The position numbers are program-made. Shown here one piece after another: positions 12,001 to 30,000 of a stretch of DNA of 35,695 nucleotides; the first letter of the stretch is position 1; each line of letters opens with the position of its first letter. This DNA comes from Thermodesulfovibrionales bacterium (GTDB taxonomy: Bacteria; Nitrospirota; Thermodesulfovibrionia; Thermodesulfovibrionales; UBA6898): the NCBI GenBank assembly GCA_044450345.1, contig JBIOIY010000033.1:1-35695 (forward strand), given 5' to 3'.

Positions 12001-15000
12001 CGACCAAGGCACAGGGGCTCGGACTCGGGCTCGCGCTTACCAAACGCATCATCGAAGAGCATAAGGGCAAAGTGGATTTTAAGAGCGTCATGGGGAAGGG
12101 AAGCGCGGTCGCCATGATACTTCCTATTGAAAAGGAGGGCTAAAAATGACTGTAGTTCTCGTTGTAGATGACGAACCCCTTCAGAGAGACATACTGAAGA
12201 CGATTCTCGCGGACGAAGGATATGAGACCCATACAGCCTCTTCCGGAGAAGAGGCGCTCAAGGTCATCGCAAAGTATTATCCGGATGTCATACTCACGGA
12301 CCTCAAGATGGAAGGGATGGACGGGATAGAGCTTATAGAGGCGGTGACAAAAATGGAACTGCCGGCGAGGGACGGGTTCGGGCCGACGATGATCATCATG
12401 ACCGCCCACGGGACAATATCCTCGGTGGTCGATGCGATGAAGAAAGGCGCCTTCGATTACCTCACGAAACCCCTGAACAAAGATTCCCTCATCATGACTG
12501 TCAAAAGGGCCGTCGGGCACTCGGAACTCCTCAAGGAGAACCTGCAGCTCCACAAGGAGCTCTATGACAGGTTCAAGATAGAAGGCATCGTCGGCAAGTC
12601 CGGCATGATGCAGGAGGCGATCGAGATCATGAAGAAGGTCTCGGGCAGTTCCGCCACCATACTTATCAGGGGCGAGAGCGGTACGGGGAAGGAACTCGTG
12701 GCGAAGGCCATCCATTACAACAGCCCGAGACGGTCGAAGGCCTTTACCGCACTCAACTGCGCGTCCATACCGGAGAACCTCTTCGAGAGCGAACTCTTCG
12801 GCTATGAGCCTGGCTCATTCACCGGCGCAGTCGCACGAAGGATCGGCCTTTTCGAGGCTACAAACGGCGGCACCCTTTTTCTCGACGAGATCGGAGATAT
12901 GCCCCAGATGATGCAGTCGAAACTCCTGAGGGTCCTCCAGGACAAGGAGATCAGGCGACTTGGAGGAAAAGAAGCGATAAAGATCGATGTGAGGATCATC
13001 ACCGCAACGAACAAGGACCTCGAAAAGGAACTGATGAAAGGGAGTTTCAGGGAGGACCTTTACTACAGGCTGAGGGTGGTATCGATAGAACTTCCTCCGC
13101 TGCGTCAAAGGAGGAGCGACATCCCTGAACTAGTGGACTTCTTCATAAACAAATACAACCGTGAATTCGGCAAAAGAGTAAAGGGCGTTGAAGAGGCGGC
13201 GCTCAATGCCCTTGAGGGATACAACTGGCCGGGGAATATTCGCCAGCTCGAATCTGTAATAGAGAGGGCCGTGCTCATGTGTGATACCGACGCGATCAGG
13301 GTAAAGGACATAAAGGGAGAACTCAGGACGCTTCAGTCCGCTGAGGCGTTCGATCCGGACCTGCCCGAGGAAGGAATCAATCTCGATGAACTAGAAGCGA
13401 AGCTGCTGAGAAAGGCGATGACAAAGGCCAACGGCGTAGTTGCAAAGGCGGCCAAAATGCTCGGCCTGAGCTATAAAACCTTCTGGTACCGCTGGGAGAA
13501 ATTGAATCCCAGCGCCCCCTCAAAAAAGGAACCGCCTGCGGAATAAGGGATTCGCTCTTTTCCGCGAACGGTTGCTCAAAAAAAGACATGGAAAGATGAA
13601 GGCTGAAACGCTGCACGCGAAGTCAGGAGGAAACAGAGACGTGTTAAAGAAAAAAGAAAAAACTAATGTATTGAACCTGCCGTTCAATAAGATCCTTTTG
13701 ATAAAGAAGTCGGATGTCCCGGACACAATCTTTATGCTGGAGGACGAGCAGAAATACCAGAACCATTTGGGCACTGTCCATGCGAGCGCCCAATATGCCC
13801 TCGCGGAGGCAACAAGCGGTGAAATCATTGAAAGAAACCTGGGGGACTGGAGTGGCGCTTATTTCCCGGTCGTCAGAAGGGTCGAAATAAAGTATAAGAA
13901 TCCCGCAAAAGGGAGGTTATTTTCAACGGGGAACCTTGATCCGGACAGTGTTATGAAGGCGAAGAAGGAGCTTTCAGATAAGGGACGGACCCTGATAGAT
14001 GTCCCGGTAAAAATTGAAGACGAAGAAAAGGATGCCACCTTTGAAGGCACATTCACCTGGTTTATTGCAAGGGACAGAAAGTAATGGCAGTGGGTGACCC
14101 GCTACCAAAGCAATCGATACGTTCCTCATCGGTTCCTATGCAGTCCCTTTGCAATCCGGCTTTGCTGTTCGGTACTCACGTCGGCCTCGATGGCGAGAAT
14201 CTTCTTTTTGAACAGTTCGTACTCCTCTTCAGTTGCGGCCTCGAACCCGCTGCAGTCCTTCCCGAGCGAATGAAGGACCGTCGCGTCATCCGGCTTCATG
14301 ACATCGAGCGCCGCAAGCGCGTCCCTGATGTCCTCTCTCATCTTATCATTGACCGTACCGTTGCAGCACATGTTGAATTCCGGGATCGGGACCGACAACG
14401 CAAGAATCCTTATCCCCCTGTCGCGGTAGGCGTACGCCTTTTCCTCCATTAACCCACCCGCGTCAAAGCTTCCATCGACCACCGCCTTTGCCACCTCGTC
14501 ATGTCCGTCGAGGAACTCGTAATACCGGAGGTCCCTAAGTGAAATACCCGCGTCCTTCAGCGTGGCAAGAGGCATAATGAATCCGGTCGAAGAGGTTACC
14601 CCGCCGAAGGCAAAGCTCTTTCCCTTCAGGTCGTCCAGTGACCGGATCCCGGAGTCGCTTTTCACCACTACCGCTGCGTGATGATACGCCTCGCCTTTCC
14701 TCAGCGCCTTCGCAATCACCATTACCCCGTATCTCCTGTTAGCCTCCACATAGTTCGCGGGCCCCATCGCACACAGCTGCGTAGCGTTCTGGCCTATGTC
14801 CTTGACGGCGTCATCCATGTCGATAGCCACCTTGAGGTCGACTTTTATGCCCAGTCTGCGGCCGAGATATTCTGAAAGAGGGAAGAACTTCCTGAACATC
14901 ACCGAAGGCTCTTGCAGCGGAACGACGCCAAGCCTCACAGAATGTCCTTTCTTGCCCGAGAAACGGAAACGTTCCATTTCGGCCTGCAGTAGTTCAGCGT

Positions 15001-27000: not shown

Positions 27001-30000
27001 TAAAGGACATGTCACCTTCAGAGAGCTTCACCGCCGCGTCTTCGAGGGACTTTACGGGCATGATGATCATTTTGCGTATCATCGCCCAGAGTACGATACT
27101 GAAAATAAAGCAGGCCAGGACTGTGACGAGAATTACTATGACGATCATCCGGGATGCGTCGGCATATTCCTTTGTTATGGATATCGATATCTTGACCGCG
27201 CCGAGGATTTCGGGATCGTTAGCGTGACATGTCCTGCATTTTTCGCTGTTTTCGAGAGGCTTATAGAAGGTCATCTTTTTCAATCCCCTCTGGAACAGCG
27301 GCGCCTTTGTCTGCGCTATCTTCCTCATTATATCGGCCTCGGTCGCAGGCGCCGCTTTGTCGAACGCGGCAGCGCCCCGGTAATTCAACAGCGAAATCTC
27401 TTCCGCGCCGCTGGCGCCTTTTACCTCCTCCACCAACGCCTTGGTGAGGTCGGCCCTTCCCTCGATCATTGTCCTCTCCACGTCCTTGACAATGACCTTC
27501 GCCACGGCCTCGGAGCTCGTCTCGGTCAGGCTATAGAGGCTTTTCTTTTCGATAGTCAGAACCATCACGCCCGCGAGGATTATGCCGGCCAACAGCATGC
27601 TCACCACGAGAGCCAGTATTTTCAGTTCGAGTTTTTCCCTCATGCGCCTCATTACGATACCTCTATATTCAGAGCGACATCAGACCTGACAATCGATATG
27701 AAGCGCTTTTCGAGTATTACTACGCCTTCTATATACTTAAGCTCGTTCTCCGTAAGATGGGAAGGCGGATCGAGTATCGTTCCGGCAGGAAACCTCATTA
27801 CTCCGAGGACCTTGTCAATCGTAGCTCCTATCATACCTTTGGGGCCTGAAAGAATAAGTATCCTCCTGTCTTCTTTCTTATCGCCCATGTCCTCTTTCGT
27901 CGCTTCCCTTTCCTCTTGCGGTTCGTCTGTACCCTTTAGTGCAAGTCTGCTCCGGAGGTCTATCACAGGGATGATCTTCCCTCGTAACGAGGTTATCCCC
28001 CGGACATAGTCCGGCATTGTCGGGACCCTTGTGATCCTCTGGAACCGGATGATCTCCTCGACCTCGGAAACCCGGAATGCAAATTCTTCGCGGAAGAGGC
28101 TGAACGTCAGGAGTTCCAGCGCTACTGCTTCCTCCCCGGGTCCCTCCTTCGGCTCCGAAGGCATCTGCCCCTCGTCCTCTCCCCGGGGAGGTGCGGCGAC
28201 TTCGCCCCTTCTCTCCCCTGCACCGGGAAGAAAGGGTGTTTCATCATCTATGTCTCCAGGAACTTCCTGGACAGGTTCTTCATGAGAGACAGGCACCTGT
28301 GGCGTCTGCGAAGCCTCCTTGGCAGGCTGGACAGCCTCAGCCGCCTTTCCCTTTTCCTCTTTCTCTTTTGCCTTTTTTCTAATTCTCGCGATATCCATTC
28401 AAACCCAGTTCCCTCGCCGCGTCCTCTATCAGCGTCCCGCTGATGGTGGTCATCTCCCTCGCAAATCCGTCAAGGAGAGCCGATGTGGCGATGCTGTTTA
28501 TGACCCTCGGGATGCCGCCGGAAAGTCTGTACAGGACCGCAAGTGCTTCGTCGGTGAACAGCACATCTTCCCTGCCCGACATCCTCAACCTGTGCATCAC
28601 ATATCCCATTATCTCGCCCTCGGCGAGTGGGCCGAGATGGAAAAAAAGCCCTATCCTCTGTCTCAGGGGAAGATACGCTTTATGGTTCAGCCTCCTCCTG
28701 AGATCGGTCTGGCCGACGAGGATGATGCTCAGGAGATTGGTATCGTCAAGCTGGAAGTTCGTCAGAAGGCGTATCTCTTCAAACGTGTCCTTGCTCGGTA
28801 TGAGTTGTGCCTCGTCTATGATGATCACGTGCGTAACTCCCGATTCGTGGTCATGAAAGACCTTTTCGCAGATGGCGTCCAGCAGGTCGGCCTTGTAGAT
28901 AGAGGGGATATCGATCTCCATCCTCTTGGCGATCGTCCTGAGGAACTGTGCGGGGCTCAAAACCGGATTGATGATCGTAATGATCCGGCAGCGCTCGTCG
29001 AGCACATCCATCAACGCCCTGGTGAGGGTCGTCTTCCCGCAGCCGACCTCTCCTGTCAATAAGATCATTTCCTTCTCCTCGACCGCATACTGCAGCCTCG
29101 CAAGCGCCTCTTCATGGTTCTTGCTGAGGAAAAGGAACTTCGGGTCCGGTGTCTTGCTGAAAGGCCTGGCCTTCAGACCGTAAAATTCTTCATACATGTG
29201 CCGCCCCCTTTTGCTTGATCATCGATGCATCGATAAGCGATTCGATATCGAGGACCAGTATCACCTCATGTTTGCCTATCTCCGCCGCTCCGGCGAAGCC
29301 CCTTAACTTCTTGAGGTAATCACTCAACGATTTGATGACGATTTCGTGCTGCCCGAAAAGCTCGTCAACGAGTAGTCCCACCTTCCTTTCGCCGAACCCC
29401 ACAATTACCGCAAAAGAACGGTCATTCTCATCGCCTGAAAGATTGAAATATTTGTTTACCCTGATCATCGGGAGCATATCGCCCCTCAGGTAATAGACCT
29501 CTTTCCATTCTATTGTCTGTATGTCCTTATGCTCGACGATGAGCGTTTCCGACATGGAAGACAGCGGCACAGCAAATTTCTCGTGGCCGACCCTTACCAG
29601 GAGCGCCTTGATGATGGCAAGGGTGATCGGGAGGGTGAGCATAAAAGTAGTGCCGACATCCTTTTTCGTTTCGACATCGGCGAACCCGCCGAGGGCGGAA
29701 AGCTTCTCCTTGACCACGTCCATGCCGACCCCTCTGCCGGATACCTCGCTCACCACGTCCTTTGTGCTGAATCCCGGGGCAAAAATAAAATCGACAATCT
29801 CGCTTTCGCTCAGTTCTGTGTCATCCCGGACGAGACCTTTTTCCACCGCCTTATTCCGCACCTTCACGAGGTCTATCCCCCCTCCGTCGTCCTGGAGTTC
29901 GATGACGACGTGGTTGCCCTTCTGGTATGCCTTGAGGACGATCGTACCGGACTCATTCTTGCCCTTCATTTTTCTGGCCTCAGGGCTTTCGATCCCGTGG

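Follow-up and report, generated by a model that had tools for sequence, protein, structure and literature searches.

The window analysed here, a 35,695-nucleotide stretch of DNA from a Thermodesulfovibrionales genome, holds a chemosensory gene cluster in which two chemoreceptors, MCP-A (g02148) and MCP-B, carry a phosphonate-binding-type domain after the signalling hairpin. The question that this locus raises is what such a tail would read from inside the cell. Binding domains at the C-terminus of chemoreceptors are known in outline; besides Tlp1, treated below, precedents include Desulfovibrio DcrH (hemerythrin) and H. pylori TlpD (CZB). For the phosphonate-binding-type tail, neither a ligand nor a mechanism was found in the searchable literature. 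The genome-wide survey's note proposed that the receptors have two inputs, an outside gas or redox signal and an inside phosphorus ligand, in a fusion that it had not found in print. From the present analysis, the layout is already catalogued, and a sulfur oxyanion, for example sulfite, is a likelier ligand of the inner domain than a phosphorus compound.

Anatomy of the receptors

MCP-A and MCP-B are 47% identical and have a common layout by Pfam and hydropathy: a transmembrane segment, a haem-c sensor, a second transmembrane segment, HAMP, a 64-heptad hairpin and the Phosphonate-bd tail (Table 1). The Mcp40H-20_sensor model matches residues 60–167 of MCP-A (E = 1.6e-10) and 53–159 of MCP-B (E = 2.4e-10), HAMP matches 199–239 and 194–229, and MCPsignal matches 402–581 and 407–572. 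Phosphonate-bd is matched over its complete 242 positions at 709–946 (E = 1.5e-54) and 703–940 (E = 5.9e-61). These assignments are far above chance and, together with the intact reading frames, confirm the architecture described in the survey. In both receptors 226 + 222 residues flank the conserved tip, as in the class named 64H (PMC8235581).

Table 1. Features of the chemosensory cluster within the window.
Feature	Position	Strand	Basis or remark
MCP-A, 976 aa	14126-17056	(-)	open, intact ORF; last gene of cluster
MCP-A tail, 709-946	14219..14932	(-)	separate long-branch tail subgroup
MCP-A haem-c sensor, residues 60-167	16556..16879	(-)	Pfam, hydropathy
MCP-A CxxCH, residues 146-150	16607-16621	(-)	motif
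CheY-like receiver, 34 bases upstream of MCP-A	17091..17459	(-)	Pfam
Coiled-coil + GAF protein, highly conserved in cluster	17472..18293	(-)	Pfam, neighbourhoods
CheB methylesterase	18293..19363	(-)	Pfam
CheR methyltransferase	19383..20258	(-)	Pfam
HEAT-repeat protein, conserved in cluster	20251..22224	(-)	Pfam, neighbourhoods
CheW	22193..22681	(-)	Pfam
MCP-C, 673 aa: two TMs, HAMP, MCPsignal; no CxxCH, no tail	22682..24703	(-)	Pfam, hydropathy
MCP-B, 959 aa	24773-27652	(-)	open, intact ORF; conserved, cluster-core copy
MCP-B type II binding-protein tail, 703-940	24833..25546	(-)	Pfam, PDB matches, AF2 model
MCP-B HAMP (194-229) + signalling hairpin	25937..27073	(-)	tip residue 468; ~64 heptads, HAMP end to residue 690
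MCP-B haem-c sensor (sCache_heme / Mcp40H-20), residues 53-159	27176..27496	(-)	Pfam; PDB 3B47, 3B42 matches
MCP-B CxxCH, residues 139-143	27224-27238	(-)	motif
MCP-B distal Met motif	27467-27478	(-)	alignment
CheW	27652..28398	(-)	Pfam
AAA_22 (ExeA-like) ATPase, conserved in cluster	28379..29197	(-)	Pfam, neighbourhoods
CheA: Hpt, dimerisation, HATPase, CheW	29190..31151	(-)	Pfam
CheY-like receiver	31148..31516	(-)	Pfam
DUF4388 protein, conserved first cluster gene	31662..32795	(-)	Pfam, neighbourhoods

Each receptor has two strong hydrophobic spans, both N-terminal to residue ~205, and the single later hydropathy peak in the MCP-A tail is weak (1.25). Between hairpin core and tail, no 19-residue window exceeds KD 1.6 in any of the 278 tail-bearing receptors (maximum 1.54). 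The topology predicted from sequence supports a cytoplasmic location of the tail, as the survey had held. A complete folded domain C-terminal to the hairpin, with no intervening membrane span, is also the arrangement of the Azospirillum brasilense membrane receptor Tlp1, whose C-terminal PilZ domain binds intracellular c-di-GMP (Kd 6.9 uM) and tunes sensitivity (PMC3604760). The Tlp1 domain differs from the MCP-A and MCP-B tails in fold and ligand, and Tlp1 governs flagellar swimming.

The periplasmic part of each receptor has one CxxCH motif inside a Cache-like domain flanked by the two transmembrane segments. Geobacter sulfurreducens GSU0582 and GSU0935 are built in the same order, with two transmembrane segments enclosing a domain that has CxxCH and a distal Met, followed by HAMP and MCP (PDB 3B47, 3B42; PF21563), and the MCP-B sensor matches 3B47 with E = 4.5e-6 and 3B42 with E = 4.2e-4. 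By alignment, M62 of MCP-B coincides with the Met pair of these structures; a Met is present in 38 of 39 aligned sequences, and the Cys and His of CxxCH are invariant in these 39, a sample picked as haem-type. The motif was also present at 30/30 fetched loci, in agreement with the conservation reported earlier, and cytochrome c assembly genes were found in the host. These data support a haem-c sensor of the GSU0582/GSU0935 type with the distal Met kept. The Geobacter sensors bind NO and CO (PMC8396549), and sCache_heme is described in a preprint as common among Nitrospirota (PMC12889525). MCP-A and MCP-B differ from GSU0582 and GSU0935 in their 64-heptad hairpin and C-terminal binding domain.

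Fold and pocket of the tail

The best PDB match to the tail was PtxB (5O2J, E = 4.6e-32), so the likeness to PtxB/PhnD structures seen in the survey stands. The tail as modelled by AF2 (pLDDT = 96.5) compared equally well with sulfate-bound ArrX (Z = 30.4, rmsd 2.1, 247 aligned) and with PtxB (Z = 30.1–30.2); with the Z scores tied, the fold does not discriminate between ligands. In a model of the full-length monomer the linker (690–698) was of low confidence, so that coupling in the long class would not necessarily be rigid. This linker is about 10 residues in long receptors and is missing from short ones.

The pocket may be considered in terms of the Te_PtxB positions D22, Y55, Y100, S130–S132, H160, S178, Q207 and Y208. 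MCP-B presents L708, F741, Q786, S816-T817-S818, H846, M864, E887 and F888 at these positions, and MCP-A presents L, M, H, S-S-T, H, M, E and F. As controls on this mapping, the published residues were recovered for three PtxB-type proteins and one AioX-type protein, L134 giving C, D and P. MCP-B, with the type II fold, has the S-T-S loop (S130-T131-S132) and H160; MCP-A retains the His and, as the survey had remarked of it, deviates in the loop, with S-S-T where S-T-S is usual. Across 278 distinct tail sequences from long and short receptors, in a family of at least this size, Ser occupies the S130 position in 276 and His the H160 position in 272. The Ser/Ser/His set of the survey's S-T-S-S and GHHD motifs does not mark a phosphorus ligand, since the arsenite sensor AioX has it too (PMC5908839).

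The residues specific to PtxB are replaced. The cap position, Y208, is Phe in 268 of the 278 tails, Trp in 4, Tyr in 2 and Asp in none, so that the Asp cap (D205) of E. coli-type PhnD is missing as well; the latch position, D22, is never Asp and is Leu in both MCP-A and MCP-B. Among the 162 haem receptors the Y55 position is Phe in 151 and the Y100 position Gln or His in 156, and both pocket tyrosines are retained in the 83 short receptors. Nor does the pocket follow AioX, ArxX and ArrX: in place of Cys106, Asp210 and Pro240 there are Thr or Gly, Met, and Phe, the Cys position being Thr in 234 and Gly in 26 of the 278 tails. MCP-B has E887 where Pm_PhnD has D205, a residue bonded to a protonated oxygen (PMC5700983); bisulfite would suit such a site, as would phosphate and phosphite, whereas thiosulfate and sulfate would be disfavoured. 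Some copies (L040, L024/L025, L140, L148) have a degenerate pocket.

Relatives of the tail

In a tree, all tails fall in one branch (support 95) with the PtxB and PhnD controls outside. Like PtxB, Pm_PhnD and E. coli PhnD (PMC5700983), the tail has a two-lobed type II fold (Z ~30), a Ser/Thr loop and a His. Unlike these exported transport proteins with ABC permease and ATPase partners, it is predicted to be cytoplasmic, is fused and has no ABC partner. Public sources often annotate tail receptors as ABC transporter components.

The fold is used for sensing and not transport in AioX and ArrX (arsenic oxyanions; PMC5908839) and in ThsS and TtrS (thiosulfate and tetrathionate; PMC5408782, PMC11293645), and sulfite inhibits ThsS at ~390 uM (PMC5408782). 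Those domains differ from the tails of the MCPs in being periplasmic and feeding histidine kinases, N-terminally in ThsS and TtrS. The MCP-B tail matches the TtrS model with E = 3.2e-6, and the TtrS-like protein L129, below the family cut-off, agrees with the tail at some pocket positions (Phe at Y55, Glu at 207, the His, an aromatic cap) and not at others. Among the 47 nearest stand-alone relatives examined, 38 lie next to a gene for a kinase, GGDEF/EAL/HD, SpoIIE or PAS protein, 2 next to an ABC ATPase gene and 7 next to neither. Many of the stand-alone relatives come from sulfur-cycling taxa, according to their record titles.

The survey's searches had shown no such fusion, but the architecture is in print. 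Phosphonate-bd (PF12974) C-terminal to MCPsignal is listed in the legend of Fig. 8 of Russell et al. 2013 (PMC3604760), and the same domain order appears in supplementary file 1 of Ortega & Krell 2020 (PMC7390727). The likeness is one of domain order, the legend and file entries giving no ligand, host or mechanism.

Distribution and accompanying genes

A single match spanning signalling domain and tail was found in at least 49 of 151 genomes of the class among the matches listed, host included and the partial G039, G135 and G109 left out, which upholds the spread reported earlier (28 of 81). Also among the matches listed, three orthologues end N-terminal to the tail (G003, G143, G150). The fusion occurs in other Nitrospirota classes too, and 14 of 16 tail receptors outside the class retain the tail with CxxCH absent. 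The tail is the constant part and the haem swappable; 88 of the 278 tail receptors (78 short, 10 long) have no periplasmic domain. The pairing of haem and tail noted in the survey is real in MCP-A and MCP-B and is one of several, as the tail also accompanies different sensors or no sensor at all.

Sulfur and phosphorus genes were compared across carriers. The host has dsrA; its genome (91% complete) yielded no PhnE above the cut-off and no match to PtxC, and the best PtxD match had 26–30% identity. Carriers in the class, among the matches listed, have dsrA in 47/49 and PhnE in 0/49, and carriers outside it have dsrA in 40/45 and PhnE in 5/45. With the Tyr cap and Asp latch of PtxB replaced as well, the phosphorus ligand put forward by the survey is unsupported.

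Nine families without dsrB (108 genomes) gave no match to the fusion, and the 100% complete G003, without dsrA, dsrB and aprA, has a haem orthologue that lacks the tail. The link between Dsr and tail is confounded by kinship: 141 of 151 class genomes have dsrA regardless, and close receptor orthologues are absent altogether from the Dsr-negative families. Long fusions number 0/36 in the Dsr-positive families f3, f6, f7 and f17, and G150 has lost the tail and kept dsrAB and aprA. Neither dsrA nor dsrB was seen in the near-complete carriers G163, G209 and G220; the G163 pocket is without the cap, as is that of its Dsr-positive congener G210.

What the tail may sense

The best explanation, to which a probability of about 0.4 may be assigned, is that the tail senses a small oxyanion in the cytoplasm, (bi)sulfite being the leading candidate, and thereby adjusts a chemosensory pathway that does not act on flagella. 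An account of binding, ligand, coupling and output may be built on the observed anatomy, sequence topology, fold, pocket residues and distribution. MCP-A and MCP-B are 64-heptad receptors of a conserved, probably non-flagellar cluster in Dsr-bearing Nitrospirota. Outside, a His/Met c-type haem would read NO/CO or redox state, as in GSU0582/GSU0935. Inside, the C-terminal arm of the hairpin returns to the HAMP-proximal end and passes through the linker into the two-lobed domain, where the oxyanion grip (Ser loop and His) lies beneath a hydrophobic Phe/Leu/Met roof. The tail would most likely close on a small three-oxygen, probably protonated cytoplasmic anion, with (bi)sulfite from dissimilatory sulfur metabolism again the leading candidate. 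Closure would then bias the four-helix bundle at its top, with a change in the activity or sensitivity of CheA, comparable to the C-terminal PilZ of Tlp1. A second, internal input besides the haem is likely; of the dual-input proposal, it is the phosphorus identity of the inner ligand that lacks support. It is doubtful that the fullest version applies, in which a fold recruited from periplasmic signalling proteins reads cytoplasmic (bi)sulfite as the DsrAB substrate, is integrated with an outside NO/redox haem to drive a non-flagellar pathway in uncultured sulfate-reducing and sulfur-disproportionating Nitrospirota, and is the sole input of the short, sensorless receptors found in sulfur-cycling Proteobacteria.

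A somewhat unlikely alternative is that the tail reports phosphate or energy state by sensing phosphate in the cytoplasm or a metabolite that carries it (pyrophosphate, nucleotide, APS, sugar or acyl phosphate). The S-T-S-S loop and His of most long tails and the match of E887 to the Pm_PhnD carboxylate are consistent with this, as are family structures titled with phosphate, ATP (XAC2383, 5UB7) and glycerol-1-phosphate (9LF9), the description of a PhnD1 as a likely phosphate transporter (PMC10284923) and the glgC gene beside the cluster in the host and G003; an affinity in the millimolar range, if the tail had one, would fit the cytoplasm. However, glgC is linked in just 1/16 fetched loci, the Phe/Leu/Met roof would hardly accommodate a fourth oxygen or any large group, and Te_PtxB Y208F, with the cap residue of most tails, abolishes phosphate binding (>60 mM; PMC5700983). 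The same substitution takes phosphite from 0.17 to 295 uM (PMC5700983). This PtxB variant, which still binds phosphite while excluding phosphate, and the aromatic cap kept in the tails would suit a sensor of imported reduced phosphorus (phosphite, hypophosphite, methylphosphonate), as would the PtxB matches at the top of the PDB search and the tyrosines kept in short receptors. This reading is nevertheless improbable: the Tyr cap and Asp latch are gone, the tails group apart from PtxB, and PhnE is rare or missing in carriers. The host also lacks a close PtxD, in a gene comparison that covered ABC uptake and PtxD.

The fold is promiscuous, since the titles of ArrX entries name sulfate, malonate, acetate, chloride and arsenate as ligands, and there could be room under a hydrophobic roof for a methyl or C-H moiety. 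Another small anion (bicarbonate, formate, acetate, nitrite, arsenite, selenite) is still quite unlikely, as the arsenite-binding Cys of AioX is absent and no genomic link to any of the six was found. Least probable is that the tail works without a ligand, in docking or as a structural part (array packing, or a HEAT, GAF or CheR partner), or is a relic. Loss of the tail in the three orthologues, the degenerate pockets and the replacement of Y55 and Y100 in long tails would fit such a role; against it, the Ser and His are kept in >97% of tails across two receptor classes, and the tail is the only recognisable sensor in the 88 receptors without a periplasmic domain.

These results reduce the question to one soluble domain of 250 residues that has a distinctive pocket signature. 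Its hosts mostly respire sulfur and mostly lack ABC uptake of phosphonate/phosphite, and most of those in the class lack flagellin. Identification of the ligand could reveal how organisms with dissimilatory sulfur metabolism monitor that pathway from within, and would supply a cytoplasm-stable oxyanion sensor domain. Phosphate or a nucleotide would be less surprising and still the first ligand for the family.

The cluster and its output

The host genome (91% complete) has PilT; neither flagellin nor FliG was found in it. Flagellin occurs in 13/49 carriers (among the matches listed) versus 79/102 other genomes of the class; as 36 of these 49 carriers are without it, the output is probably not swimming. 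The cluster is of a delta-proteobacterial type, a candidate for class F10 of the Wuichet-Zhulin scheme. It shares this type with the beta-group che cluster of Geobacter, for which preliminary data favour control of extracellular matrix over swimming (PMC2577667). Unlike the Geobacter beta clusters, which that source describes as without mcp genes, the host cluster has three; no mention of 'HEAT' was found in PMC2577667.

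Receptor anatomy and topology

The genome-wide survey's note had placed two chemoreceptors in the window, and open reading frames were found at both positions (MCP-A and MCP-B; table below). According to Pfam, both are composed of an Mcp40H-20_sensor, a HAMP domain, an MCPsignal domain and a complete Phosphonate-bd domain (PF12974), the last of which follows the signalling hairpin and is termed the tail. Each receptor has one CxxCH motif and two strong hydrophobic spans, the spans both lying before residue ~205. The hairpin extends for 226 residues from HAMP to the tip and 222 back, corresponding to 64 heptads. 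MCP-A and MCP-B are most alike in the hairpin (52% identity), followed by the sensor (42%) and the tail (41%).

In the standard topology of these receptors, everything after the hairpin lies in the cytoplasm with the end of the C-terminal arm near HAMP. No membrane span separates the hairpin core from the tail, as none of the 278 tail-bearing receptors (278/278) had a 19-residue window above KD 1.6. By this topology, the tail is predicted to be cytoplasmic and to sit where the bundle is closest to HAMP; hydropathy led us to reject a periplasmic tail. Since the fusion is intact in hundreds of independent sequences, a frameshift or mis-assembly artefact was rejected as well.

The outer sensor matches 3B47 (E 4.5e-6) and 3B42 (E 4.2e-4) with the CxxCH and the distal Met aligned, and this Met is kept in 38 of 39 sequences. 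Cytochrome c assembly genes are present in the host. GSU0582 and GSU0935 are reported to bind NO whether oxidised or reduced, and CO in the reduced form, with Met60 displaced (PMC8396549). The family was named sCache_heme in a 2026 preprint that places it in more than half of the genomes of Nitrospirota and, in the part concerned with signalling-linked members, argues that these are NO sensors (PMC12889525). The outer half of the receptors is a known sensor type, from which we infer its function here.

Coordinates of the receptors and of other features discussed in the text
Feature	Location	Positions	Strand	Remarks
MCP-A	window	14126-17056	-	976 aa ORF
MCP-B	window	24773-27652	-	959 aa ORF
Open frame antisense to MCP-B	window	25115-28009	+	964 codons; probably a shadow frame of the coiled-coil gene
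Coiled-coil-GAF protein	window	17472-18293	-	
glgC-like gene	window	32792-34042		overlaps first cluster gene
glgC-like gene	G003, locus L038	4187-5434		adjoins first cluster gene
Glycogen phosphorylase-like gene	window	3379-5601		
IS110-family transposase	window	268-1347	-	contig end
Stand-alone PF12974 genes of host	contigs C15, C17, C29	C15:10792-11739, C17:40597-41544, C29:17454-18473		two near-identical
Exported stand-alone PF12974 clade	fetched loci	L075:5932-6753, L077:5881-6744, L088:5758-6747, L090:5917-6747		15 further similar loci
A-type tail receptors with stand-alone PF12974 genes	G086, locus L037	5771-19768		

Literature and distribution of the fusion

MCP-A and MCP-B resemble known receptors with a C-terminal cytoplasmic ligand-binding domain and form a variant of their own. 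The survey's searches had shown no such fusion, yet it is in print: the Fig. 8 legend of PMC3604760 and the list in supplementary file 1 of PMC7390727 both give Phosphonate_bd as a C-terminal domain of chemoreceptors. The accessible text of PMC8050422 brings up the PF12974 family for AioX only. A literature search covering mostly open-access papers found no functional study of a receptor with this tail, and nothing for this receptor family among papers on PhnD with chemoreceptors and phosphite or sulfite, or on the chemosensory class of the cluster. The fusion is real and conserved, and its architecture is catalogued yet unstudied.

A hairpin and tail in a single match were identified in 49/151 genomes of the class Thermodesulfovibrionia, a count that leaves out three partial cases. 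Three orthologues (in G003, G143 and G150) stop short of the tail. CxxCH is present in 30/30 fetched loci. In a phylum sample, the hairpin-plus-tail query matched 70 of 251 genomes, 45 carriers lying outside the class, where only 2 of 16 tail receptors have CxxCH. The 278 distinct tails, a set enriched in close relatives of the query and thus not a measure of population frequencies, are found on long receptors of the haem type (162), with another periplasmic domain (15), with none (10) or as fragments (8), and on 83 short receptors, 78 of which have N-terminal TMs only and no periplasmic domain. By source name, the short receptors belong to Nitrospirota, Acidiferrobacter-type and other Gammaproteobacteria, Rhodocyclaceae, Deltaproteobacteria and Bacillota. 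What stays constant is the tail; the outer inputs can be exchanged, and haem is one among several.

Locus L037 lies outside the che cluster and has, within 15 kb, two stand-alone PF12974 genes and two A-type tail receptors, of which one carries a haem sensor and the other a helical non-haem sensor. Public records of such receptors (P0001-P0120, P0302-P0359) are often titled 'phosphate/phosphite/phosphonate ABC transporter substrate-binding protein', and labels of this kind hide the family.

Fold and pocket of the tail

The tail was modeled with a pLDDT of 96.5. Its fold is about as close to ArrX as to PtxB and PhnD (Z 30.4 to 27), and the ranking was dropped as a clue to the ligand because the three are tied within 1-2 Z units. 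Pocket positions follow Te_PtxB numbering, taken from the 5JVB alignment and PMC5700983, and were tallied with a profile over the 278 tails; mapping controls returned D-Y-Y-S-T-S-H-Y for three PtxB-type proteins and Cys/Asp/Pro for one AioX-type protein.

Position S130 is Ser in 276 tails, T131 is Thr in 254, S132 is Ser in 177 and Gly in 82, and H160 is His in 272. The cap (Y208) is Phe in 268 and Tyr in 2, the latch (D22) is Leu in 200 and Asp in none, S178 is Met in 240, and position 207 is Glu in 182 and Gln in 83. Long haem receptors have both Y55 (Phe, 151/162) and Y100 (Gln 87, His 69) replaced; short receptors have Tyr at each (82/83). These counts indicate that the anion grip is under selection, while none of the elements that give PtxB, E. 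coli PhnD or AioX their selectivity is present. By such residue tests the tail is none of these three, though it seems to work like signalling members of that family. The S-T-S-S/His motif, previously read as a sign of phosphorus, is uninformative on this point, since PhnD and AioX have the Ser/Ser/His set in common (PMC5908839). Values reported for Te_PtxB Y208F (phosphite 295 uM, phosphate over 60 mM; PMC5700983) are not directly transferable because the latch of the tail has changed too. The MCP-A tail falls in a separate subgroup (Met55, Gly73, S-S/A-T loop; support 100) and may bind a different ligand, or bind more weakly.

Candidate ligands of the tail

Genome context argues well against reduced phosphorus and weakly for sulfur. 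The survey had proposed a phosphorus ligand, which in its reduced form fares poorly: PhnE is absent from the host genome (91% complete) and from all class carriers (0/49), PtxC has no match in the host and the best PtxD match is 26-30%. Outside the class, 5 of 45 carriers have PhnE and 40 have dsrA. The host has dsrA, as do 47/49 class carriers, the two without being 67% and 78% complete. The tail receptor had no match in nine families without dsrB (108 genomes), and G003 lacks dsrA, dsrB and aprA as well as the tail. PF12974 domains of ThsS/TtrS sense thiosulfate and tetrathionate, and sulfite inhibits ThsS (PMC5408782, PMC11293645). Against a sulfur link, dsrA is near-universal in the class anyway (141/151), four Dsr-positive families have no long fusion (0/36), three near-complete carriers (G163, G209, G220) have neither dsrA nor dsrB, G150 has lost the tail and kept dsrAB, and the Dsr-negative families are without close orthologues of the receptor altogether.

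On balance, a sulfur oxyanion is tentatively preferred with a probability of roughly 0.4. E887 of MCP-B, at the Pm_PhnD D205 position, would favor a protonated anion, namely bisulfite, phosphate or phosphite over sulfate or thiosulfate. Phosphate or a phosphorylated metabolite ranks next as a rather unlikely ligand, and the narrower proposal that the tail receptors sense sulfite is similarly doubtful. Some other anion is improbable; reduced phosphorus is slightly more so, and a tail with no ligand at all is the least probable.

Stand-alone relatives and probable origin of the tail

Stand-alone loci were found with one peptide pattern, giving a biased sample of at least 53. The neighbors of the nearest relatives were tallied for 46 of 53 loci plus L043 (n = 47; without L078, L093, L100, L103, L108, L111 and L112, most of these seven being short or broken). 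A kinase, GGDEF/EAL/HD, SpoIIE or PAS gene adjoins 38, an ABC ATPase 2, and neither 7. Record titles among the listed matches include Thiobacillus, Sulfuriferula, Thiomargarita, Parabeggiatoa, Thiodiazotropha, Desulfurivibrio and Desulfobulbaceae.

A tree of 170 domains was calculated in a quick run without bootstrap and with a midpoint root only; its rows winB, L003 and L058 are wrongly labelled stand-alone. A branch with a support of 95 has all tails on one side and the PtxB and PhnD controls on the other. A further branch (support 97) sets the short tails apart, and long tails group with 19 stand-alone proteins, mainly of sulfur oxidisers (support 96). The branch uniting long and short tails, with a support of only 86, takes in these 19 proteins and is not decisive for a single origin of the fusion. 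With relatives beside signalling genes and this placement under a midpoint root, the tail was probably recruited from the signalling branch of the PF12974 family. A plasmid search returned only stand-alone proteins, about 30% identical, which were taken as controls, and when 61 class genomes were searched for the TtrS family, the single match fell below the cut-off.

The exported clade that groups with the long tails (support 96) comes from Thiobacillus, Sulfuriferula and other Proteobacteria, where its genes neighbor those for GGDEF proteins or kinases; the four members examined (L075, L077, L088, L090) have a shortened Ser loop and Tyr in place of His. Exported proteins with two tandem Phosphonate-bd domains (P0126, P0137, P0138, P0139, P0150 and others) also score among the nearest relatives of the tail. 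The host, which has no PhnE match, has three stand-alone PF12974 genes, beside which no same-strand kinase or permease was recognised.

Proposed coupling of the tail to the signalling bundle

Alongside the observed anatomy, fold and pocket of these receptors and their conserved cluster, a mechanism may be proposed in which the tail would close on an oxyanion of the cytoplasm and bias the bundle at its membrane-proximal end. The last helix of the hairpin continues directly into the first tail strand in short receptors; in long receptors, about 10 residues of low model confidence intervene. The full-length monomer model (pTM 0.40) is good for secondary structure and the linker only, and a complex prediction of the tail on HAMP and the upper four-helix bundle of MCP-B scored 0.00, a value given no weight for or against docking. 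The C-terminal PilZ of Tlp1 is described as tuning sensitivity like an adaptation system (PMC3604760). By analogy, the tail may adjust the gain of the haem signal, and receptors without an outer sensor would rely on it as their primary input.

Gene cluster and probable output

Both receptors belong to one tightly packed minus-strand cluster with the order DUF4388, CheY, CheA, ExeA-like ATPase, CheW, MCP-B, MCP-C (a third receptor, tail-less), CheW, HEAT-repeat protein, CheR, CheB, coiled-coil-GAF, CheY and MCP-A. Around the orthologue, this gene set recurs throughout the class and in further classes of the phylum. Names of homologues put the host in Thermodesulfovibrionia, within Nitrospirota. 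The host genome has three CheA genes and PilT, with no match to flagellin or FliG at 91% completeness. Flagellin occurs in 13/49 class carriers versus 79/102 other class genomes, which is a tally rather than a test since kin are not independent. With no flagellin or FliG in the host and flagellin in a minority of carriers, the pathway probably acts on pili, surface structures or gene expression. Section 12 of PMC2577667 reports, as unpublished data, that extracellular matrix is controlled by a Geobacter beta-group cluster, a class (F10) to which the present cluster might belong.

Few genes of the cluster are as well conserved as that for the coiled-coil-GAF protein (62-77% identity in six of the loci compared), which is a candidate for a further cytoplasmic input or for output.
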